This document shows positions 1 to 41,036 of a stretch of DNA of 41,036 nucleotides, one piece after another (position 1 is the first letter of the stretch; every line of letters starts with the position of its first letter). Origin of the DNA: a virus (lineage: Duplodnaviria; Heunggongvirae; Uroviricota; Caudoviricetes); IMG/VR virus record IMGVR_UViG_2778261637_000006; one strand, given 5' to 3'. The notes under the pieces were generated by a model that worked only from the letters and a program-made list of their open reading frames with translations, had not been told where the DNA came from and did no database searches. Both the position numbers and the translations under genes were made by a program.

Positions 1-573
1 TTACATTTCAGGTTGCGTTATGACAGTCCCAACAGGGTGGTAGCGGTAGATCGTTGACAGTCCAATATCATAGATAATTGCCAGCCGCTTTCTGTCATAC
101 CCTTTCTGGAGCAATCTTGCGATCTGCTCATGCTGCTCCTTCGTCAGTTTCGGGCGACGTCCTCCAACTCTTCCTTGTGCTCGCGCAGCAGCCAGTCCTG
201 CCAGCGTGCGCTCAACTATCAGTTCACGCTCCATTTCTGCCAGTGCACCCATCATATGAAAAAAGAACCTTCCCATCGGAGTGCTGGTATCGATTGAATC
301 CGTCAGACTGCGAAAATTGACACCTTTTGCGCGTAGCTCTTCTGTGAGAGCAATGAGGTGTTTCATTCTTCTACCCAACCGATCCAGCTTCCAGACCACC
401 AATGTATCCCCTCTTTTAAGGCACTTTAAAGCGCGTTTCAGGCCTGGTCGTTCCGACTTGGTTCCGCTCATTTTGTCCTCAAAAATCTGTTCACATCCTG
501 CGCACATTAATGCATTGCGTTGCAAATCTGTGTTTTGGTCATTTGTTGACACACGTATGTAGCCAATCAGCAT
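1..573 (-). CDS. gin: Serine DNA invertase, Gin/Pin/Cin/Hin family
   Basis: 190 aa from internal Met MLIGYIRVSTNDQNTDLQRNAL; conserved resolvase catalytic Ser in VSTNDQ and C-terminal HTH; very close to the Mu Gin and e14 Pin sequences as recalled. The upstream 43 codons of the ORF track are rejected. Confidence 0.9.
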   Translation of the reverse strand: MLIGYIRVSTNDQNTDLQRNALMCAGCEQIFEDKMSGTKSERPGLKRALKCLKRGDTLVVWKLDRLGRRMKHLIALTEELRAKGVNFRSLTDSIDTSTPMGRFFFHMMGALAEMERELIVERTLAGLAAARAQGRVGGRRPKLTKEQHEQIARLLQKGYDRKRLAIIYDIGLSTIYRYHPVGTVITQPEM

Positions 574-5861: not shown

Positions 5862-6199
5862 AGCAACTCCTGAGTCCGGGTCTGTCCGTCTGAGCCTTTC
5901 CAGCTCACCCGGAGCGTAAGATGTTCGCCGTCGACGGCGGGTTTAACTGACATAAGCTGGCAGCGGGGCTCCCAGCGTCGGATGGCATCGACGGATTCGC
6001 GCACCACATGCGGAATGGCCCGGTCTACAGGCCAGTCGATATAAAGATGCAGATTGCTGCCGAACTCCGGGCGATGCGGGTCGCTGCCGCGGGGAGTCCG
6101 CAGGATAATTTGAATCGCCTGCCGGATATCATCCAGCCCCCGGACAATTTCGCCGGGAGCCTGCAGGGTCGGTTGCCAGAATACTGAGGTTGTTTTCAT
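5852..6199 (-). CDS. Baseplate protein, GPW/gp25-like (Mu gp46)
   Basis: 115 aa; gp25-like motifs (IRQAIQIILRTPRGSDPHRPEFGSNL). Confidence 0.85.
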   Translation of the reverse strand: MKTTSVFWQPTLQAPGEIVRGLDDIRQAIQIILRTPRGSDPHRPEFGSNLHLYIDWPVDRAIPHVVRESVDAIRRWEPRCQLMSVKPAVDGEHLTLRVSWKGSDGQTRTQELLWR

Positions 6200-6253
6200 G
6201 GGGGCAGTATTGCCCCCGTGCGGGAACGCTGATATTAAAGGCGTTTAAAAAGC

Positions 6254-6850
6254 TCAGTGGGAGTGGTGGCTGGAGTTTTCGCCATCAGACAACATACTGC
6301 CCGTGGCATGGGCATTCCCTTTAATCTCGATATTGCCATGGATGGTCGCGGTAACACCTTCACCACCAGAACCCGCCATGCCTCCTTCGTAAATCAGCTT
6401 ACCCCTGACACGCAGATCTCCGGTAAGTTCGGTTTCCGGTGCGTCAATCGTGGCTTTCTGTGTTTTCAATACCACATCAGCACCACACTCAATGACAATA
6501 TGCTCAATGCCGCCCCGGATGATCAGAGTGTGCGTCTTCCGGTTGTAGCTGTACTCTGCACCATCAGCAAACCGGGTTCCCCGGATATTTTTGTCACTGA
6601 ACGGTGGTTTATCGACGTCTGAATACACCGCGCCCAGAATAACACCATCCTCGCCGTTGGCATCGAGCAGCACCTCAACCTGCTCCCCCACGTCAGGGAG
6701 CCAGTAATCTTTGTTATCCTGGGTATTGCGCTGCAGCACGTTAAGCCAGTTTGTGCGCAGGTTATCGCATTCAGGCAGACGAACGCGGGCCTGAACCCTG
6801 TCGGCATCAACGGCACTGACCGTACCGACCTGACGAGTGACACCAGTCAT
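6254..6850 (-). CDS. Baseplate spike/assembly protein V-like (Mu gp45)
   Basis: 198 aa; gpV-like N-terminus (VGTVSAVDADRVQARVRL). Confidence 0.8.
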   Translation of the reverse strand: MTGVTRQVGTVSAVDADRVQARVRLPECDNLRTNWLNVLQRNTQDNKDYWLPDVGEQVEVLLDANGEDGVILGAVYSDVDKPPFSDKNIRGTRFADGAEYSYNRKTHTLIIRGGIEHIVIECGADVVLKTQKATIDAPETELTGDLRVRGKLIYEGGMAGSGGEGVTATIHGNIEIKGNAHATGSMLSDGENSSHHSH

Positions 6851-25034: not shown

Positions 25035-25772
25035 TTACGTACCCACACAGCTTGCCCCTCCCCATGAGAGATAACGCGGGGCCAGCGTGAACAGGATGCG
25101 CTGGGGATAATGACGGTTCTCCCGCCAGCTGGCAGTGCTGCGTCCGGCATTCACCGTGGCGACATGACCAAACCAGCGGGTGCTGTCCAGCCCTTTTTGT
25201 GATGCAAGCCGCCTGTCCCGCTGTACCCAGCCCAGACCACCGTTATAGCCCGACAGTGTCATGGCCATACGCTCGCAGTCACTGGCGGCGCTGACGCGCT
25301 GCCACAGCCAGCGGTCATAGCTGACCAGCGCCCGGATGGCCCATGCCGGATTAAATGGCTCACGGCTGTTAAGCCCCGGCATCAACTGACTTATCCAGTC
25401 GGCGGTGGCGGGCATGAACTGCGCCAGTCCCTGAGCGCCAACCGGCGAGATCGCATCAGGTCGCCAGCCGCTTTCCTGATGCAGTTGCGCAGCGAAATCA
25501 GCCACCGGCGCAGACAGTCCCCATTCAAGCCGGGCATTACGGATCACATCATCGCGATACTGCAGCGCTGCCTGCGGAGGCTGCGCTGCGCGGGCCTGAC
25601 TGAAGAAGCCGCCACACCAGAGCAACATTGCGACAAAGAATACCCGTGCCATATGAACCAGAAAGGTCCCGGCGCGGACTGACAGGCGTTCGGTTCTGAT
25701 GAAGACCCTAAAGGCTTCGAAAGCCAGTTTCAGGGACATGCATACAATCCAGGTGATCTGCGGCCAGTTCAT
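25035..25772 (-). CDS. Endolysin, lytic transglycosylase (SLT domain) with N-terminal signal/anchor
   Basis: SLT motif AAQLHQESGWRPDAISPVGAQGLAQFMP; hydrophobic MARVFFVAMLLWCGGFF; ATG at 25772 is 2 nt after the holin stop, internal start at 25652 also possible. Confidence 0.8.
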   Translation of the reverse strand: MNWPQITWIVCMSLKLAFEAFRVFIRTERLSVRAGTFLVHMARVFFVAMLLWCGGFFSQARAAQPPQAALQYRDDVIRNARLEWGLSAPVADFAAQLHQESGWRPDAISPVGAQGLAQFMPATADWISQLMPGLNSREPFNPAWAIRALVSYDRWLWQRVSAASDCERMAMTLSGYNGGLGWVQRDRRLASQKGLDSTRWFGHVATVNAGRSTASWRENRHYPQRILFTLAPRYLSWGGASCVGT

Positions 25773-25774
25773 GA

Positions 25775-26125
25775 TTAAAGCCCCATCGCAACAGCCAGAC
25801 AGACCGCTGCAACAATCAGTGCACGGCGGATTAACGCAGCAGAAAACACCAGGTGAAGGCCGGTCTGTACCGGGAAACGCCCATCAGCCATCAGCCTGTC
25901 GTCATGTTTCAGGTACTGACCGGGACGGGCTTTGGGGAAGAGCGAACGGTCAAGCCAGTAACCCAGCACTGCTGCCAGCGTGATGAGTGCCAGCTTGTAG
26001 ATCACAACAGGCAACTGCTGTGGCGAGACCAGAGCGATGGTGCCCAGCAACAGCACTGAGGTCAGCAGCCAGCCGCTGAGGCGAGGTTTTTTAACAGGGG
26101 GAATGAATTTTTTCAGGTTTTTCAT
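25775..26125 (-). CDS. Putative holin
   Basis: 116 aa from ATG at 26125, preceded by AAGGAGA SD; basic N-terminus and two predicted TM helices; directly upstream of endolysin. Confidence 0.65.
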   Translation of the reverse strand: MKNLKKFIPPVKKPRLSGWLLTSVLLLGTIALVSPQQLPVVIYKLALITLAAVLGYWLDRSLFPKARPGQYLKHDDRLMADGRFPVQTGLHLVFSAALIRRALIVAAVCLAVAMGL

Positions 26126-26255
26126 GTGTGTCTCCTTGTCTGGTGGAGACAGCATCACAAATACAGGGCGCGAAGGATTTTAAAGCGCGTTAAGAGAGCC
26201 GGGGATACGGGATGTGCAGGATAAACGATGAATTATTCACAGAGGAGAATACGAT

Positions 26256-27784: not shown

Positions 27785-28549
27785 ATGAAAATGAAGACAT
27801 TACCCATCGTTCCATGGATTGGTGGCAAACGTCGCCTGGCAAAACACATCCTGCCGCTGTTTCCGGCGCATGAATGTTATGTGGAGCCGTTTTGTGGGGC
27901 AGCAGCGCTCTATTTTCTTAAGACACCCGGCAAGATCGAAGTCATCAATGATATCAACGGTGAACTGGTGAATCTGTACCGGGTGGTAAAGCATCACCTG
28001 GAAGAATTTGTCCGCCAGTTCAAATGGGCGCTGGTCAGCCGTCAGATCTACAAATGGCTGCAGATCACCCCGGAAGAAACACTGACGGATATCCAGCGTG
28101 CGGCACGGTTCTACTACCTTCAGAAGCAGGCGTTTGGCGGCAAGGTGGCAGAGCACAGCTTCGGTACCTCCACCACATCCCCGCCACGCTTCAACCTGCT
28201 GCGTATTGAAGAAGAACTGTCAGCAGCACACCTGCGGCTTTCCAGAACAGTCATAGAACACATGGACTGGCAACAGTGCATTGAGCGTTATGATCGTCCG
28301 CACACACTGTTCTACTGCGACCCACCGTACCTGGGTACGGAAGGCTATGGTGTGGATTTTCCTGAAGGGAACTACTCGCGGCTGGCAGAGCTGGCCCGGT
28401 GCATCAGAGGAAAAATGATAATTTCGGTGAACGATATCCCACAGATGCGCGAGGTGTTCACTGGACTGAACATACAGACAGTGAACATCAACTACAGTCT
28501 GGCGGGGAAATCTACGCCGCGCCGTGAACTGGTAATCTGCAACTTCTGA
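27785..28549 (+). CDS. DNA N6-adenine methyltransferase, Dam-like
   Basis: 254 aa; AdoMet motif FCGAAALYF then catalytic DPPY (FYCDPPYLG) in the order typical of Dam-type enzymes. Confidence 0.85.
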   Translation: MKMKTLPIVPWIGGKRRLAKHILPLFPAHECYVEPFCGAAALYFLKTPGKIEVINDINGELVNLYRVVKHHLEEFVRQFKWALVSRQIYKWLQITPEETLTDIQRAARFYYLQKQAFGGKVAEHSFGTSTTSPPRFNLLRIEEELSAAHLRLSRTVIEHMDWQQCIERYDRPHTLFYCDPPYLGTEGYGVDFPEGNYSRLAELARCIRGKMIISVNDIPQMREVFTGLNIQTVNINYSLAGKSTPRRELVICNF

Positions 28550-36343: not shown

Positions 36344-36785
36344 ACAACGTCTTATCCAGCTCATTCATATTGCCCGTAATGAACTGGGTATGGATGAAGA
36401 CACCTACCGCCAGATGTTACAGGGGCTGACCGGTAAAGCCTCAACCAAAGGAATGGATACCACACAACTAAACTGCGTGCTGGAATCCATGAAAAGGAAA
36501 GGCTTTCGCGTTAAGCCTGCCGGAAAAGCCAGCTCCGGTTTACCGCTGGATAACCATCCGCAGTCCAGGAAAATCCGTGCGCTATGGCTTGAAATGGCTG
36601 CTGCCGGCATTGTTCGTGACCGTTCAGAAAATGCATTAGCGCGGTGGATCAAGCGGGAAACGGGCATCAGCGCCCTGCGCTGGCTCAGTACTGAACAGGC
36701 AAGCAGTGTTATTGAGAAACTGAAGAAGTGGCAGCGCAGAGCTGCGGGAGTCAAACATGAGCGACCTGAATCAGTTTCGAAGTAA
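36333..36785 (+). CDS. GemA-like protein (Mu gp16, DUF1018-like)
   Basis: 150 aa from ATG 36333 with AAAGGAG SD; immediately upstream of mor as in Mu. Confidence 0.6.
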   Translation: MMTKQRLIQLIHIARNELGMDEDTYRQMLQGLTGKASTKGMDTTQLNCVLESMKRKGFRVKPAGKASSGLPLDNHPQSRKIRALWLEMAAAGIVRDRSENALARWIKRETGISALRWLSTEQASSVIEKLKKWQRRAAGVKHERPESVSK

Positions 36786-37155
36786 AGGGCCGGAACTCCT
36801 GGTGGAGCTGGCACAGCATACCTCTGAGACCGTTCGCGAGATTATTGATATTGAGCCCGCAATTGCCGACCAGATTGGTCAGGCCGTCGCGAACCGAATG
36901 ATGCAGGTCTGGGGCGGGCAAAACGTTTATTTCCCGATGGGCATGGTATGGAAGGTCAGTCAGCGCGACCGGGAAATCTTCAGGGAGTTTAACGGACGCA
37001 ACCACCACGAACTGGCCCGCAAGTTTGGTGTTTCGCTTCAGTGGGTCTACAGCGTGGTTAAGCGGGTCAGAAAAGAAGAACTGGATCGGATGCAGGGCAG
37101 GTTGTTTGATGAAGATCTGCCAGAGGAGACGAAAGACGTTAACAAATCCAGATAA
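36757..37155 (+). CDS. mor: Middle operon regulator Mor (Mor/C family activator)
   Basis: 132 aa; C-terminal HTH FNGRNHHELARKFGVSLQWVYSVVKRVR matches the Mor pattern. Confidence 0.8.
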   Translation: MSDLNQFRSKGPELLVELAQHTSETVREIIDIEPAIADQIGQAVANRMMQVWGGQNVYFPMGMVWKVSQRDREIFREFNGRNHHELARKFGVSLQWVYSVVKRVRKEELDRMQGRLFDEDLPEETKDVNKSR

Positions 37156-37198
37156 TTCCTGCTTGTTAAAGTCCTTTCAAAAATCTCCTTATTGTATA

Positions 37199-37231
37199 AA
37201 AGCACGGTAGACCCCTTACCGTGCTTTTTTT
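37199..37231 (+). terminator. Rho-independent terminator after mor
   Basis: Stem AGCACGGTA / TACCGTGCT with 7-nt loop followed by TTTTTTT. Confidence 0.8.
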
Positions 37232-37269
37232 ATGCTCTCTCTTTAGTATTCAGGATGCAGGGAGAAAAT

Positions 37270-37902
37270 ATGTTTGACGTTTCGTTGTTAAATCTGCCAT
37301 GGGCAACACTGGTGACCCTGACCAGTGGCTATATTGGGTATTTTATTGCGAATGTGGGACTGAAGGATCACCACAAGCCCATTGAGGTGACTTTTTCTTC
37401 GCTGATTTTTGGCCTGACAGCAATGATGGCTTACCAGGCTGTTATGTGGGCAGGTCTGAATGCCTGGCTGGCAACACCACCAGCACTTCTGTGTGCCCTT
37501 ACATGCGGTGCGTGGTGGCGCAGGTACGGTCGCAAATGGATGTACAGATTACTGTGGAATAATGATATTTCATGGTCTGACGATACCAGCTCAGCATGGC
37601 AGGCAATGTTTGATCAAACAGGCTTCAGCGTTACCGAGGTCAGAGTGATTCTTCGCGATGGTTCCGGTATGATGTCACGGCTGCCAGGGAACTTTGAAGA
37701 GTGGCCTAACGGTCCGTTTACCCTGGGGAATAAAGGCGATATGGTTCTTTACGTCACGCACAGCAGCCCTTCAGGCAGTAACGAATGGGAAGAGTATAAA
37801 GGCGTGGTTGATAAGTACTGGGGAGCTCTGGCAACCTATATTCCAGCAGATCAGATTGCCAGAGTGGAGATCAGGCGCGTTCGTGCAACGAACGATGAAT
37901 GA
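37270..37902 (+). CDS. Membrane protein of unknown function (cargo near the prophage edge)
   Basis: 210 aa from ATG 37270 with GGGAGAA SD; about three N-terminal TM helices then ~110-aa soluble domain; after the mor terminator. Confidence 0.6.
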   Translation: MFDVSLLNLPWATLVTLTSGYIGYFIANVGLKDHHKPIEVTFSSLIFGLTAMMAYQAVMWAGLNAWLATPPALLCALTCGAWWRRYGRKWMYRLLWNNDISWSDDTSSAWQAMFDQTGFSVTEVRVILRDGSGMMSRLPGNFEEWPNGPFTLGNKGDMVLYVTHSSPSGSNEWEEYKGVVDKYWGALATYIPADQIARVEIRRVRATNDE

Positions 37903-38474
37903 TGTTTATTTTTTCCCTGGGGCAGGGGCTGCCGGCATAGTGGTTTTATTGGCAGAGGAAGACGATTCTCCTTTTCTACCGGAATCGCGCTCGAACGTCA
38001 CGATGTGCTTGCTTTTGGGCTTTTCTGAGTAATCCAGGCTATCATGCTTATTGTTTTGAGTAGTCATTGGAATCATCCTTTTTGTTGCGGGTCATGTTTC
38101 AGCAAACTCGATTCTAAGTTGCCAGGAAGGATGATTTCAATGCCCGACTTATCTATCGTATAGCGGAAAAGAATTTCAGTTCTGTTCACCAGAACCCATG
38201 TTAACCCACTCCAATTCGTTATTTATCTCACGGATCCCCCTTCATTTATCTCATGTCTGATCATTTATTCAACCGACGCAATTTTGCGTACCTGCTTCAT
38301 AAGCATCACGCAAAAGCTGCAAAACAGCATCTTTCCCGGAATCACCATCAAGAACTCGCCGTTCGCTTCTTCCCCTGAAATGATTAACTCCGGTATCATG
38401 TGCGCCTTATGTGATTACAACGAAAATAAAAACCATCACACCTCATTTAATATCAGGGAACCGGACATAACCCC

Positions 38475-41036
38475 ATGAGTGCAATAGAAAATTTCGATGC
38501 CCATACGCCCATGATGCAGCAGTATCTCAAGCTGAAAGCCCAGCATCCCGAGATCCTGCTGTTTTACCGGATGGGTGATTTTTATGAACTGTTTTATGAC
38601 GACGCAAAACGCGCGTCGCAACTGCTGGATATTTCACTGACCAAACGCGGTGCTTCGGCGGGAGAGCCGATCCCGATGGCGGGGATCCCCTACCATGCGG
38701 TGGAAAACTACCTCGCCAAACTGGTGAATCAGGGCGAGTCCGTTGCCATCTGCGAACAAATTGGCGATCCAGCGACCAGCAAAGGTCCGGTTGAGCGCAA
38801 AGTTGTGCGTATCGTTACGCCGGGCACCATCAGCGATGAAGCGCTGTTGCAGGAGCGTCAGGATAACCTGCTGGCGGCTATCTGGCAGGACAGCAAAGGT
38901 TTCGGCTACGCGACGCTGGATATCAGTTCCGGGCGTTTTCGCCTGAGCGAACCGGCTGACCGCGAAACGATGGCGGCAGAGCTGCAACGCACTAATCCGG
39001 CAGAGCTGTTGTATGCAGAAAATTTCGCCGAGATGTCGCTGATTGAAGGTCGTCGCGGACTGCGCCGTCGCCCGCTGTGGGAGTTTGAAATCGACACCGC
39101 GCGCCAGCAGTTGAACCTGCAATTTGGCACCCGCGATCTGGTCGGTTTTGGCGTCGAGAACGCGCCGCGCGGACTTTGTGCTGCCGGTTGTCTGTTGCAG
39201 TATGCGAAAGATACTCAACGCACGACCCTGCCGCATATTCGTTCTATCACCATGGAACGTGAGCAGGACAGCATCATTATGGATGCCGCGACGCGTCGTA
39301 ACCTGGAAATTACCCAGAACCTGGCGGGCGGTGCGGAAAATACGCTGGCTTCTGTGCTCGACTGCACCGTCACGCCGATGGGCAGCCGTATGCTGAAACG
39401 CTGGCTGCATATGCCAGTGCGCGATACCCGCGTCTTGCTTGAGCGCCAGCAAACTATTGGCGCATTGCAGGATTTCACCGCCGAGCTGCAGCCGGTACTG
39501 CGTCAGGTCGGCGACCTGGAACGTATTCTGGCGCGTCTGGCTTTACGAACTGCTCGCCCACGCGATCTGGCCCGTATGCGTCACGCTTTCCAGCAACTGC
39601 CGGAGCTGCGCGCGCAGTTAGAAAATGTCGATAGCGCTCCGGTACAGGCGCTGCGTGAAAAAATGGGCGAGTTTGCCGAGCTGCGCGATCTGCTGGAGCG
39701 AGCAATCATCGACACACCGCCGGTGCTGGTACGCGACGGTGGTGTTATCGCACCGGGCTATAACGAAGAGCTGGATGAGTGGCGCGCGCTGGCTGACGGC
39801 GCGACCGATTATCTGGAGCGTCTGGAAGTCCGCGAGCGTGAACGTACTGGCCTGGACACCCTGAAAGTCGGCTTTAACGCGGTTCATGGTTATTACATTC
39901 AGATCAGCCGTGGACAAAGCCATCTGGCACCCATCAATTACATGCGTCGCCAGACGCTGAAAAACGCCGAGCGCTACATTATTCCAGAGCTAAAAGAGTA
40001 CGAAGACAAAGTTCTCACTTCAAAAGGCAAAGCACTGGCACTGGAAAAACAGCTTTATGAAGAGCTGTTCGACCTGCTGTTGCCGCATCTGGAAGCGTTG
40101 CAACAGAGCGCGAGCGCACTGGCGGAACTCGACGTGCTGGTGAACCTGGCGGAACGGGCCTATACCCTGAACTACACCTGCCCGACCTTTATTGATAAAC
40201 CGGGTATTCGCATCACCGAAGGCCGCCATCCGGTGGTTGAACAGGTGCTGAATGAGCCGTTTATCGCCAACCCGCTGAACCTGTCGCCGCAGCGTCGCAT
40301 GTTGATCATTACCGGTCCGAATATGGGCGGTAAAAGTACCTATATGCGCCAGACCGCACTGATTGCGCTGATGGCCTACATCGGCAGCTATGTACCGGCA
40401 CAAAAAGTCGAGATTGGACCTATCGATCGCATCTTTACCCGCGTAGGGGCAGCGGATGATCTGGCATCCGGGCGTTCAACCTTTATGGTGGAAATGACCG
40501 AAACCGCCAATATTTTACATAACGCCACCGAGTACAGTCTGGTACTGATGGATGAGATTGGGCGCGGGACGTCCACTTACGATGGTCTGTCGCTGGCGTG
40601 GGCGTGCGCGGAAAATCTGGCGAATAAGATTAAAGCGTTGACGTTGTTTGCCACCCACTATTTCGAGCTGACCCAGTTACCGGAGAAAATGGAAGGCGTC
40701 GCCAACGTGCATCTCGATGCACTGGAGCACGGCGACACCATTGCCTTTATGCACAGCGTGCAGGATGGCGCGGCGAGCAAAAGCTACGGCCTGGCGGTTG
40801 CAGCCCTTGCGGGCGTGCCAAAAGAGGTGATCAAACGCGCGCGGCAGAAACTGCGTGAGCTGGAGAGCATTTCGCCGAATGCCGCCGCGACGCAGGTAGA
40901 TGGCACGCAGATGTCTTTGCTGTCCGTACCAGAAGAAACTTCGCCTGCGGTCGAGGCACTGGAAAACCTCGACCCGGATTCACTGACTCCGCGTCAGGCG
41001 CTGGAGTGGATTTATCGCTTGAAGAGTCTGGTGTAA
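38475..41036 (+). CDS. mutS: DNA mismatch repair protein MutS (host chromosomal)
   Basis: 853 aa, full length with TAA stop at 41034..41036; mismatch-binding N-terminus and Walker [10 protein letters not shown]; reads as E. coli MutS. Confidence 0.97.

Follow-up and report, generated by a model that had tools for sequence, protein, structure and literature searches.

Positions 37116-38223 of the window, the 41,036-nt stretch of IMGVR_UViG_2778261637_000006, are a mobile, optional two-gene cargo module (moron) of a BcepMu-like prophage. The membrane-protein gene at 37270-37902 (gene 1) had been described in the first-pass annotation as a single cargo gene, a description that we replace, as gene 1 is one half of a conserved convergent pair whose other half encodes a microprotein (gene 2). 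We propose, with a probability of about 40%, that the microprotein restrains the membrane protein, which would be an effector, and that the pair confers phage exclusion, abortive infection or a benefit of the addiction type. The features on which the argument draws are as follows.

36757-37155, plus strand: mor, the final backbone gene in the early operon of the prophage (Pfam Mor, E 1e-43).
37116-38223, no strand: the optional 1.1-kb cargo block (moron), absent from most related prophages.
37198-37228, no strand: hairpin terminator with A4, a 13-bp stem and T7 (fold z-score -3.5).
37260-37265, plus strand: Shine-Dalgarno sequence GGGAGA of gene 1, read from the sequence, 4-5 nt 5' of the ATG.
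37270-37902, plus strand: gene 1, encoding a 210-aa membrane protein of PHROG 12870, a remote DUF6338 relative (open reading frame, homology and model).
37906-38067, minus strand: gene 2, encoding the 53-aa hydrophilic microprotein MTTQNNKHDSLDYSEKPKSKHIVTFERDSGRKGESSSSANKTTMPAAPAPGKK of PHROG 15726 (PGAP annotation of strain S7, PHROG match and conservation).
38065-38142, minus strand: fold-back element at the gene 2 start (complementarity, covariation and RNA fold).
38111-38140, minus strand: sigma-70-type promoter of gene 2, TTGAAA, 18-nt spacer, TAGAAT (10/12 consensus matches).
38221-38263, no strand: right end of the prophage, ...TGATCA, with its last base at 38263 (junction compared with another insertion site in S7).

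The prophage is a Mu-like (BcepMu-like) transposable element, within which the window begins, at the stop codon of the invertase gene, and gene 1 lies just inside its right end. Whether the gene falls inside or outside that end had been left as a point to be checked, and the mapping of the end to 38263 places it inside; host sequence of the ygbA-mutS spacer is back by 38272, and mutS starts at 38475. Two direct ATTTATCTCA repeats at the end (38221-38230 and 38244-38253) are probably transposase-binding sites, and the terminal 40 bp of the prophage are 82% conserved in prophages that lack the cargo. In BLAST comparisons with EC958, SF-173 and KP12, homology to these cargo-less relatives ends at 37115, 13 codons before the mor stop codon. 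EC958 and SF-173 contain prophages that are ~97% identical and end ~160 bp after mor, and their homology beyond 37115 is limited to 38224-38263 of the window. The cargo block replaces ~155 bp that are present in related prophages without it. The gemA-mor backbone is found in 640 E. coli genomes, 114 of which carry the cargo block; the stretch from mor through the open reading frame to the prophage end is found in 114 of 5426 complete E. coli genomes and is inserted at many sites, among them yeiB, yecR, tnaB, mdfA and irp1. Within E. coli, the module is found in uropathogenic as well as commensal strains (ABU 83972 among them), and outside that species in Salmonella, Klebsiella, Serratia, rhizobia and other bacteria.

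The view that gene 1 is accessory cargo at a prophage end is upheld by these many insertion sites and by its absence from most of the ~97%-identical prophages. As befits a moron, the module is present or absent among close relatives and occurs in unrelated phage backbones; as for its being a transcription unit of its own, the small gene has a conserved promoter, and the sole terminator lies 5' of gene 1. The alternative that gene 1 is a conserved gene of the host at mutS, with the prophage simply lying next to it, has next to no likelihood. There is no gene between ygbA and mutS in K-12, 5419 of the 5426 genomes match the query solely over its ~215-bp host part, and gene 1 accompanies the prophage end at many other loci. 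A host gene at this locus in prophage-free strains, which the first-pass annotation had named as the finding that would count against it, was thus not encountered: the K-12 ygbA-mutS spacer is empty, and the cargo block is absent from it. No RNA family was found by Rfam in 36700-38500.

The position of gene 1 after the mor terminator, as described in the first-pass annotation, is confirmed by the hairpin at 37198-37228, which looks bidirectional in this copy. The hairpin AAAGCACGG...CCGTGCTTTT also occurs in five other loci (L008, L009, L010, L014 and L043), including those in which mor identity falls to 32-38%, and is missing from cargo-less prophages; by this comparison, the terminator travels with the module. 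Gene 1 itself runs from an ATG at 37270 to a TGA at 37900-37902 and encodes 210 aa. The ATG is the start in the PGAP annotation and in all homologs; a 236-aa form starting at a TTG (37192) was rejected, as it would cross the terminator hairpin. The good Shine-Dalgarno sequence claimed for the gene is indeed there, and GGAG or AGGA motifs occupy the equivalent position in homologous loci. The gene can thus be called independently translated. A promoter scan and reading of the sequence found no sigma-70-like promoter between the terminator and the ATG, so that independent expression is at most putative. TATAAA at 37195 was discarded as a promoter, having no usable -35 element and no conservation. 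The sole strong, conserved promoter within the module serves the small partner gene.

The gene 1 product matches PHROG 12870 over its full length (E 2.8e-133, residues 1-210 of 210) and has 72 database homologs, and an exhaustive HMM search delineated a family of 523 clusters at 50% identity, nearly all of 200-215 aa; this open reading frame is thus well beyond chance. Pfam contains no match to the product itself at E<=1. Among 41 homologs, 20 weakly match DUF6338 (PF19865) at E<=0.1 (best E 1.4e-6). Precomputed PF19865 labels are attached to six database homologs, and NCBI names one a "DUF6338 family protein." We treat the gene 1 product as a remote sister subfamily of DUF6338 rather than as a demonstrated member. 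Neither module protein was matched in Pfam, NCBIfam or PADLOC; in particular, the 5027 defense-protein models of PADLOC-DB v2 returned no family for either protein at E<=1, and nothing above noise came from a search of PDB sequences with the family profile (E of at least 0.44). A literature search retrieved nothing on gene 1; on DUF6338, PF19865, BcepMu-like E. coli prophages, Sm-like anti-phage proteins and convergent moron pairs, its sole relevant result was a proteomics study of P. stutzeri (PMC10433244), discussed below. The remote homology and structure search that had been suggested yielded PHROG 12870, weak DUF6338 matches among homologs and an Sm-like fold, and no named function. The statement that the protein has no recognizable similarity stands insofar as every relative is uncharacterized.

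An AlphaFold2 model of the gene 1 product (mean pLDDT 85.7) predicts helices at 11-27, 37-60 and 65-97 and a beta-rich domain at 119-205, from which we delimit predicted transmembrane segments at 11-27, 37-60 and 65-~88 and an Sm/LSm-fold domain at ~107-205. The mean Kyte-Doolittle value is 1.1-1.3 for all three helices, and the remainder of the protein is hydrophilic. The model and the hydrophobicity profile thus agree with the first-pass description of about three N-terminal transmembrane helices and a C-terminal domain of ~110 aa. Five K/R residues follow helix 3, and there are none in the N-terminus or in loop 2; we therefore infer by the positive-inside rule that the protein is oriented N-out/C-in and that its C-domain is cytoplasmic. 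In the model, this domain has the elements that define the Sm/LSm fold, that is, an N-terminal helix followed by a strongly bent five-stranded antiparallel sheet, and it superposes on Sm proteins.

This layout invites comparison with the core of MscS, which is N-out and in which three transmembrane helices are followed by a cytoplasmic Sm-fold beta domain. If the modeled likeness reflects function, the gene 1 product could be a small MscS-like membrane channel or sensor that alters the ion or stress physiology of the lysogen to the benefit of the host. We consider such a lysogenic conversion highly unlikely. A comparison with MscS-type channels gave no Pfam MS_channel match and no structural match of the third transmembrane helix together with the beta domain.

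The three-helix, N-out/C-in layout inferred here is also that of class I holins, and gene 1 is always co-oriented with an upstream phage operon and has no recognizable promoter. These features would suit a lytic-cycle helper, for instance a regulator of lysis timing or of membrane state, whose expression would depend on read-through, out of the early operon in this prophage and out of late operons in alphaproteobacterial ones, and which the microprotein would silence during lysogeny. Foldseek does return holins for the transmembrane part; these matches are weak and non-significant (E 0.07-1, TM-scores 0.2-0.36), and for this reason, and because the prophage has a holin of its own, we rejected a holin identity for the gene 1 product. 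Genes for that protein (Holin_2-3) and for an SLT endolysin are located at 25035-26155, and the module is therefore not the lysis cassette of the prophage. Given that the prophage is already so equipped, that ~80% of its close relatives lack the module, that a strong terminator forming part of the module lies directly 5' of gene 1 and that the module also occurs outside recognizable prophages (L005 and L072), we regard a lytic-cycle role as distinctly unlikely.

Gene 2 lies tail-to-tail with gene 1, with 3 nt between their stop codons. Its product matches PHROG 15726 (E 1.2e-41, residues 4-56, profile positions 1-53 of 53), has a GRAVY of -1.40, is probably disordered and has a C-terminus, PAAPAPGKK, in which charged residues follow a proline-rich tail. 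A Shine-Dalgarno sequence, AAGGA, lies 8 nt 5' of the ATG at 38067, and a 56-aa form was dropped in favor of the 53-aa form on the basis of Shine-Dalgarno spacing and conservation. In 14 pairwise comparisons pN/pS ranges from 0.01 to 0.64, and L015 and L021 differ by 20 synonymous changes and a single nonsynonymous change. The pattern of substitution, together with the conserved Shine-Dalgarno sequence, indicates that gene 2 is a real gene under purifying selection. The small proteins have in common the motifs [DE][YF][ST]ExPK or [SN][YF]xPxT and a C-terminus of PPxP plus charged residues. The tail varies in charge among them, with KK in some and D/E in others, which weakens a simple SH3-ligand model.

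The promoter of gene 2, TTGAAA-N18-TAGAAT, is kept in eight divergent enterobacterial loci and forms part of a fold-back element. One arm, CATTGAAATCATCCTT (38142-38127), holds the -35 hexamer and is complementary to the other, AAGGATGATTCCAATG (38080-38065), which holds the Shine-Dalgarno sequence and the start codon; the arms are 16 nt long and 94% complementary. Across eight loci, 85% of cells are paired and five pairs have compensatory changes, the score was reached by none of 500 shuffles and slid controls were 29-49% paired. The predicted RNA fold has a free energy of -22.9 kcal/mol (z -2.5). Both arms would be present only in transcripts that enter from upstream of the promoter, and judging by complementarity and covariation the element can mask the gene 2 start site in such read-in transcripts.

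Gene 1 and gene 2 are paired in most intact homologous loci, which belong to Enterobacterales, Alphaproteobacteria, Microbulbifer and Desulfobulbus and to unrelated types of prophage. The pair follows mor in Enterobacterales, even where mor is only 32-40% identical, lies within head or tail operons of siphovirus-type prophages in Alphaproteobacteria, is at the end of a P2-like tail cluster in Microbulbifer and is situated between regulatory genes and the terminase gene in Desulfobulbus. In two loci (L005 and L072), the module lies outside recognizable prophages. Comparison of these loci shows that the two genes are mobile together, passing as a unit from one element to another unrelated one. 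Where the partner is present, the convergent gap is nearly always -20 to +10 nt (+43 in one locus), the tail-to-tail layout is retained down to 24-29% identity of the membrane protein and gene 1 is co-oriented with the upstream phage operon throughout. In three Bradyrhizobium loci the membrane gene is frameshifted and the small gene is intact, which is the decay expected of a toxin with its antidote. The small gene is absent and the membrane gene apparently intact in the Arsenophonus/Pantoea symbiont loci L012, L013 and L051 and in L057; as these represent two lineages, the microprotein is not a strictly essential antidote.

This distribution bears on classical superinfection exclusion, in which the gene 1 product, as a protein of the inner membrane, would block entry of incoming phage DNA, as do P22 SieA, T4 Imm and HK97 gp15, and the microprotein would only tune its level or be functionally separate. 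Gene 1 is prophage-encoded, optional, membrane-located and found at a module junction or genome end, and no enzymatic motif or defense-family match was found, all of which would be in keeping with such a role. However, known exclusion proteins are usually encoded by single genes tied to the entry route of one phage group, whereas the pair spans Alpha- and Gammaproteobacteria and Desulfobacterota and both myovirus-type and siphovirus-type prophages. Furthermore, the large and highly conserved domain is predicted to be cytoplasmic rather than periplasmic, and the scan revealed no promoter that would drive gene 1 constitutively in the lysogen. We therefore think classical exclusion unlikely.

A further possibility is that the proline-rich microprotein is itself the active product, a secreted or ribosome-targeting peptide, and that the membrane protein is its exporter, processing partner or immunity factor. 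The strong conserved promoter serves the small gene, and the small proteins contain Y-x-P-x-T motifs that we take, by analogy, to be loosely reminiscent of insect proline-rich antimicrobial peptides. Tandem arrays of proline-rich small genes are present in Sphingobium (L023). In P. stutzeri, proteomics detected by mass spectrometry three proline-rich small proteins encoded beside a DUF6338 gene, ending in PPPPKK or PPPPPKKGG; their genes are in tandem and co-directional with the DUF6338 gene, and the proteins were reported to be unconserved beyond the species (PMC10433244). The authors raised the idea of an antimicrobial peptide and noted DUF6338 in biosynthetic clusters (PMC10433244). Nevertheless, the likelihood of a peptide-production pair is very slight, as neither signal peptide nor leader is present in the small proteins, the net charge of orthologs runs from strongly basic to strongly acidic, three transmembrane helices without an ATPase or other energizing partner would make an unusual exporter and the small gene is wholly missing at some loci. 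The P. stutzeri tails resemble those of the partners described here, whereas the orientation is co-directional there and convergent here; antisense control therefore cannot be the whole story.

Returning to an effector restrained by its partner, we envisage that in the lysogen gene 2 would be transcribed from its own conserved promoter and that the fold-back element would block translation of transcripts reading in from host DNA at any insertion site. Because there is no terminator between the genes, the gene 2 transcript would run antisense into gene 1, which has no recognizable promoter and lies behind a terminator. On the strength of this arrangement, we propose that the microprotein is a negative regulator or antidote, which may restrain gene 1 through the antisense transcript and probably also through binding of its polyproline tail to the Sm/SH3-like barrel. 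The inner-membrane protein encoded by gene 1 would be a latent membrane-perturbing effector, released when the balance is tipped, for example by phage infection or by strong transcription from the upstream phage operon, and the outcome could be phage exclusion, abortive infection or an addiction-type gain for the prophage. Ring assembly, tail-barrel binding, antisense control and any effect on phages are, like the topology, predicted here. In favor of this reading are the joint mobility and tail-to-tail geometry of the pair, the purifying selection on gene 2, its conserved promoter and covarying fold-back, the decayed Bradyrhizobium loci and the independent detection of proline-tailed proteins beside a DUF6338 gene in P. 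stutzeri. Besides the loci without gene 2, the co-directional P. stutzeri genes, the variable tail charge and the non-significant holin matches, it counts against this mechanism that there is no homology link to any defense, exclusion or toxin family and that gene 1, being co-oriented with upstream phage operons, could instead have a lytic-cycle function.

A broader extrapolation, about which we have considerable doubts, is that DUF6338-type proteins and proline-tailed microproteins constitute a widespread, unrecognized two-component system, in which the activity of a membrane-anchored Sm-like ring is gated by a disordered microprotein. Lying exactly at the point where the convergent genes meet, the terminal polyproline tract might tie the switch to translational status, possibly through EF-P-dependent stalling or phage-induced shut-off of translation. 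If so, these pairs would form a new class of module, phage-borne and serving in conflict or sensing, without homology to known toxin-antitoxin, abortive-infection or exclusion systems.

Among known families, PHROG 12870 and PHROG 15726 match the two module proteins over their full length and carry no function, and their partnership is not recorded as far as the library shows; the proteins of Pfam DUF6338 are, like the gene 1 product, membrane proteins of similar size. Both families are thus labeled "unknown function," yet the membrane family comprises more than 500 clusters at 50% identity. With its near-constant, tiny and easily overlooked convergent partner, an anonymous open reading frame becomes part of a defined two-part system of ~1.1 kb, and the orphan observation of PPPPKK-tailed proteins beside DUF6338 in P. 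stutzeri is tied to a conserved pattern.

Proteins of the Sm/LSm fold typically assemble into hexameric or heptameric rings. The C-domain of the gene 1 product has no sequence similarity to Sm, LSm or Hfq proteins (8-21% identity) and differs from them in a ~25-residue insertion between the last strands and in being predicted to be tethered to the membrane; ring formation and RNA binding are putative. A membrane-tethered Sm-fold domain would be of interest to structural biology. Membrane effectors composed of transmembrane helices and a small cytosolic beta-barrel occur in CBASS of the Cap15 type, and T4 holin T is a class I holin with a cytoplasmic inhibitor, RIII. Cap15-type effectors and class I holins appear, on the model, to share with the gene 1 product N-terminal transmembrane helices and a small cytoplasmic beta domain able to receive a signal or inhibitor, and class I holins also share the inferred N-out/C-in, three-helix topology. 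There is no homology to either, as PADLOC gave no matches and the holin matches are non-significant, and nucleotide-signaling partner genes are absent here.

In type I toxin-antitoxin systems such as txpA/RatA and bsrG/SR4 of B. subtilis prophages, the antitoxin RNA is convergent with the toxin gene and overlaps its 3' end. As here, a prophage membrane-protein gene faces a convergent unit with no terminator between them, and the promoter of the partner is the stronger one. The toxins of those systems are peptides of <60 aa, whereas the gene 1 product has 210 aa, a folded cytoplasmic domain and a putative toxicity; furthermore, the partner here encodes a protein under purifying selection and is absent from some loci. 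The fold-back element has its counterpart in IS10 and IS50, in which "fold-back inhibition" prevents translation of transposase from outside transcripts. In both cases, sequence 5' of the gene's own promoter is complementary to the Shine-Dalgarno sequence and start codon, and the hairpin is possible only in read-in transcripts, with the pairing here backed by covariation. The insertion sequences guard a transposase gene in this way, whereas the gene predicted to be guarded here encodes a microprotein, is carried as cargo and lies at one end of a transposable phage. The element may thus exemplify how cargo on a randomly transposing phage insulates itself from host read-in transcription.

The segment between the 3′ end of mor and the right end of the prophage carries what we consider a well-supported example of a conserved, mobile and optional two-gene prophage module, in which a membrane protein with a predicted Sm-fold domain is paired with a proline-tailed microprotein. 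By gene content the prophage is of the BcepMu-like transposable type: its plus-strand genes encode an rve-family transposase, an AAA+ MuB-like protein, Gam, GemA and Mor, and its minus-strand genes encode its own holin, an SLT endolysin and a Gin/Hin-type invertase. Among sequenced phages, the closest are Escherichia phage PhiKM (genus Bcepmuvirus) and Klebsiella phage KP12, with Burkholderia phages phiE255 and BcepMu next. The relevant features are as follows.

1-573 (-), Gin/Hin-type serine invertase gene (Pfam Resolvase, E 8e-51, and HTH_7)
27785-28546 (+), D12-class (Dam-type) N6-adenine DNA methyltransferase gene, near the start of the rightward gene block
36757-37155 (+), mor (Pfam Mor, E 1e-43), upstream of the membrane gene
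37198-37228, hairpin terminator (13-bp stem and T-run) between mor and the membrane gene
37260-37265 (+), Shine-Dalgarno sequence GGGAGA of the membrane gene, a good ribosome-binding site
37270-37902 (+), membrane gene, ATG to TGA, 210 aa
37906-38076 (-), small gene in its longest form (PHROG 15726, E 1e-41); the 53-aa PGAP form starts at 38067
38140-38111 (-), small-gene promoter from the promoter scan: TTGAAA, 18-nt spacer, TAGAAT
38142-38127 and 38080-38065 (-), complementary 16-nt fold-back arms, the first with the -35 hexamer, the second with the Shine-Dalgarno sequence and ATG of the small gene

The Dam-type methyltransferase may likewise be cargo or serve in anti-restriction. Window position 1 is the exact stop codon of the invertase gene, and thus the left end of the prophage lies outside the window. 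Large minus-strand ORFs, possibly tail-fibre genes, adjoin the invertase, an arrangement that suggests an invertible host-range segment. The right end lies at 38263, after ...TGATCA, where identity with one alternative insertion site ends; two ATTTATCTCA repeats are found just inside it, and the window is back in host sequence at 38272 at the latest, some 210 bp short of the mutS ATG (38475). The insertion is in the ygbA-mutS intergenic spacer, and the prophage promoter closest to mutS faces inward, away from that gene. When 37100-38480 was compared by megablast with 5426 complete E. coli genomes, the block from mor through the ORF to the prophage end was found in 114, beside varied host genes (yeiB, yecR, tnaB, mdfA, irp1, yfaV and others). 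The membrane gene therefore lies inside the mapped prophage end, a point that the first-pass annotation had left to be settled. The alternative raised there, a conserved host gene at the mutS locus, is excluded, since the block occurs at many sites and the K-12 ygbA-mutS spacer is unbroken.

The gemA-mor segment is present in 640 E. coli genomes as against 114 for the block, in agreement with the earlier claim of a cargo gene at the prophage edge, and in most of the 640 homology ends at 37112-37115, within the mor 3′ end. In EC958 and SF-173, E. coli genomes with a related prophage, the prophage ends about 160 bp past mor with no intervening gene, and the terminal 40 bp (38224-38263) alone can still be aligned (82%). 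In related phages the slot behind mor is occupied by unrelated small ORFs, encoding a hypothetical protein of 109 aa in KP12 (L002, 2727-3056) and, in PhiKM (L003, 3943-4287), 114 aa under the label 'Fe2+ ABC transporter permease protein 2', which marks the slot as a cargo hotspot. Given the block-less relatives and the other ORFs in the slot, 37116-38223 reads as a 1.1-kb insertion-type polymorphism. Across hosts, the positions of the pair are typical of morons. In Enterobacterales it is invariably found behind mor at the early operon's end, including loci whose mor is only 32-40% identical. Elsewhere it lies between a head-tail connector gene and the next genes (Pseudochrobactrum), a few small genes past the portal and capsid genes (another alphaproteobacterial prophage), after tail genes (Ensifer), at the end of a P2-like tail cluster (Microbulbifer), between regulatory genes and a terminase gene (Desulfobulbus), next to a truncated resolvase gene (Bradyrhizobium) and, on one metagenome contig, between housekeeping genes.

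Judged by its matches, the membrane gene is more than a chance ORF: the product matches PHROG 12870 end to end (E 3e-133) and has 72 homologues in a 5.8-billion-protein database, and an exhaustive HMM search yielded 523 clusters (50% identity), almost all of 200-215 aa. The ORF, its ribosome-binding site and the terminator after mor were all found as first annotated. The hairpin region folds better than 200 of 200 shuffles; this hairpin is the sole strong one, with no terminator between the module genes, and it is kept with the module in five loci (L008, L009, L010, L014 and L043) and missing from cargo-less prophages. The window copy is bordered by A4 and T7 and thus could terminate in both directions. 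No sigma-70-like promoter for the membrane gene was found by the promoter scan of 36700-38500. At 37234-37266, CUCUCUC (37234-37240) pairs in the minimum-energy fold with GGGAGAG of the Shine-Dalgarno region, a candidate anti-SD hairpin that may limit translation. A promoter-like TTGAAA-17-AATTAT at 37152-37180 (-) points antisense into mor, and the GTTCAAAAATCTC motif around it is kept in Serratia (L009, L010) despite diverged coding sequences.

The AlphaFold2 model, built from an alignment of 41 homologues (mean pLDDT 85.7), predicts helices at 11-27, 37-60 and 65-97 and a beta-rich domain at 119-205. The helices are the sole hydrophobic stretches (mean Kyte-Doolittle 1.1-1.3, versus -0.5 for residues 100-210), and model and hydropathy together agree with the three N-terminal helices and soluble C-terminal domain of about 110 aa proposed earlier. 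Positive charges are concentrated in loop 1 and behind helix 3, where residues 83-100 include five K/R; the N-terminus and loop 2 have none. By the positive-inside rule, we infer an N-out/C-in topology with a cytoplasmic C-domain. H35 in the first cytoplasmic loop is invariant and its neighbours H34 and K36 nearly so; S101 and D104 in the linker and G148, G153, D157, Y161, T163, H164 and R202 in the barrel are also invariant. That the protein is membrane-anchored with a predicted Sm-fold domain is well supported. No MscS chains were among the top hits of the structure comparison. Foldseek against viral models gave one significant match, uncharacterised, with 3-TM holins next and non-significant.

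The first-pass annotation had described a single gene; the membrane gene is real, and a convergent partner (37906-38067) was overlooked, which lies 3 nt past the membrane gene's stop codon on the opposite strand. Species-representative genomes supplied 20 loci and IMG/VR 39, and we scanned downstream of every homologue in them. Most intact loci contain a convergent ORF of 40-60 aa, with a stop-to-stop distance of -20 to +10 nt in all except L056 (+43). Hosts include Citrobacter, Serratia, Salmonella, Symbiopectobacterium, Bradyrhizobium, Afipia, Devosia, Pseudochrobactrum, Ensifer, Sphingobium and several Rhizobiales, and the partner also accompanies three homologues of 24-29% identity (Desulfobulbus propionicus, Microbulbifer and a metagenome contig). 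With well-placed Shine-Dalgarno sequences and a pN/pS of 0.01-0.64 in 14 pairwise comparisons (20 synonymous and 1 nonsynonymous differences between L015 and L021), these ORFs behave as real genes. The microprotein is hydrophilic (GRAVY -1.40). Family members have an N-terminus resembling MTxK, carry the motif Y/F-x-P-x-T/K one to three times (DYSEKPK in enterics, SYTPRTT or NYTPTTN in alphaproteobacteria) and end in a PPxP tract plus two or three charged residues (PAAPAPGKK in the window; PPPSPKKK, PPPPKK, PPPRD or PPPPVDDD elsewhere). Independent support for proline-tailed partners comes from P. stutzeri proteogenomics: three small proline-rich proteins, two ending PPPPKK and PPPPPKKGG (supplementary tables), were seen by mass spectrometry beside a DUF6338 gene, with which their genes are co-directional, and were considered species-specific (PMC10433244). 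In Sphingobium cyanobacteriorum (L023, 2008-2447, -), the membrane gene is faced not by one but by three small proline-rich ORFs in tandem (tails such as PPPPPPSR), which recall that array. A Synechococcus phage Ssp-JY41 record (L004, PP438431.1) has at its very start a 30%-identical homologue (5983-6726), the sole match in a 50,697-record phage collection; the record is 20 kb, and its end cuts a partial convergent ORF ending SSPPPKK.

The small-gene promoter is the only good one in 36700-38500 facing a module gene, and its hexamers and spacing are kept in eight divergent enterobacterial loci. In the fold-back arms of these eight loci, 85% of cells are paired, with compensatory changes at five pairs; the covariation score was reached by 0 of 500 shuffles, and slid controls paired at 29-49%. 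The gene's own promoter yields a transcript whose 5′ end lies between the arms and which cannot form the hairpin, whereas one reading in from host DNA has both arms and can. Such an arrangement would suit a gene at the very end of a randomly inserting element, and we regard careful insulation of the microprotein gene by this predicted fold-back as well supported. The same logic is known from IS10 and IS50 as fold-back inhibition, which likewise excludes own-promoter transcripts from the hairpin.

We propose that the membrane protein would perturb the membrane as an effector of phage exclusion, abortive infection or addiction, and that the microprotein, perhaps with its antisense read-through transcript, would restrain it. 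Against restraint, we found no homology to known systems, the P. stutzeri arrangement is co-directional, tail charge differs among orthologues, and two lineages have the membrane gene without the small gene. These are the Arsenophonus and Candidatus Pantoea persica symbionts (L012, L013, L051), with an apparently intact membrane gene, and L057; in the former, a promoter-arm remnant, GATGATTTCAAT, is still present directly before the prophage end. Classical exclusion of DNA entry, a lytic-cycle helper, a channel-type conversion function and a peptide-production pair are all ranked below restraint. Because both families are already in databases as 'unknown function', the genes as such are not novel. 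To our knowledge, within the literature searched, the conserved convergent pairing across distant bacteria, the predicted Sm fold of the C-domain and the putative fold-back insulator are new. The module is a prophage accessory, probably of the toxin-antidote or exclusion kind, with a modest chance of representing a new class, and it offers a concrete, cheaply testable and widely distributed system. In favor of restraint are the stronger promoter on the small gene, the promiscuity of the module over hosts and phage types, and three Bradyrhizobium loci (L024, L026, L027) in which the membrane gene is split by frameshifts and the convergent small ORF is intact; that of L026 (6605-6781) matches the L005 partner exactly. 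Finally, the two-gene layout resembles that of convergent type I toxin-antitoxin loci, which we also count in favor of restraint.
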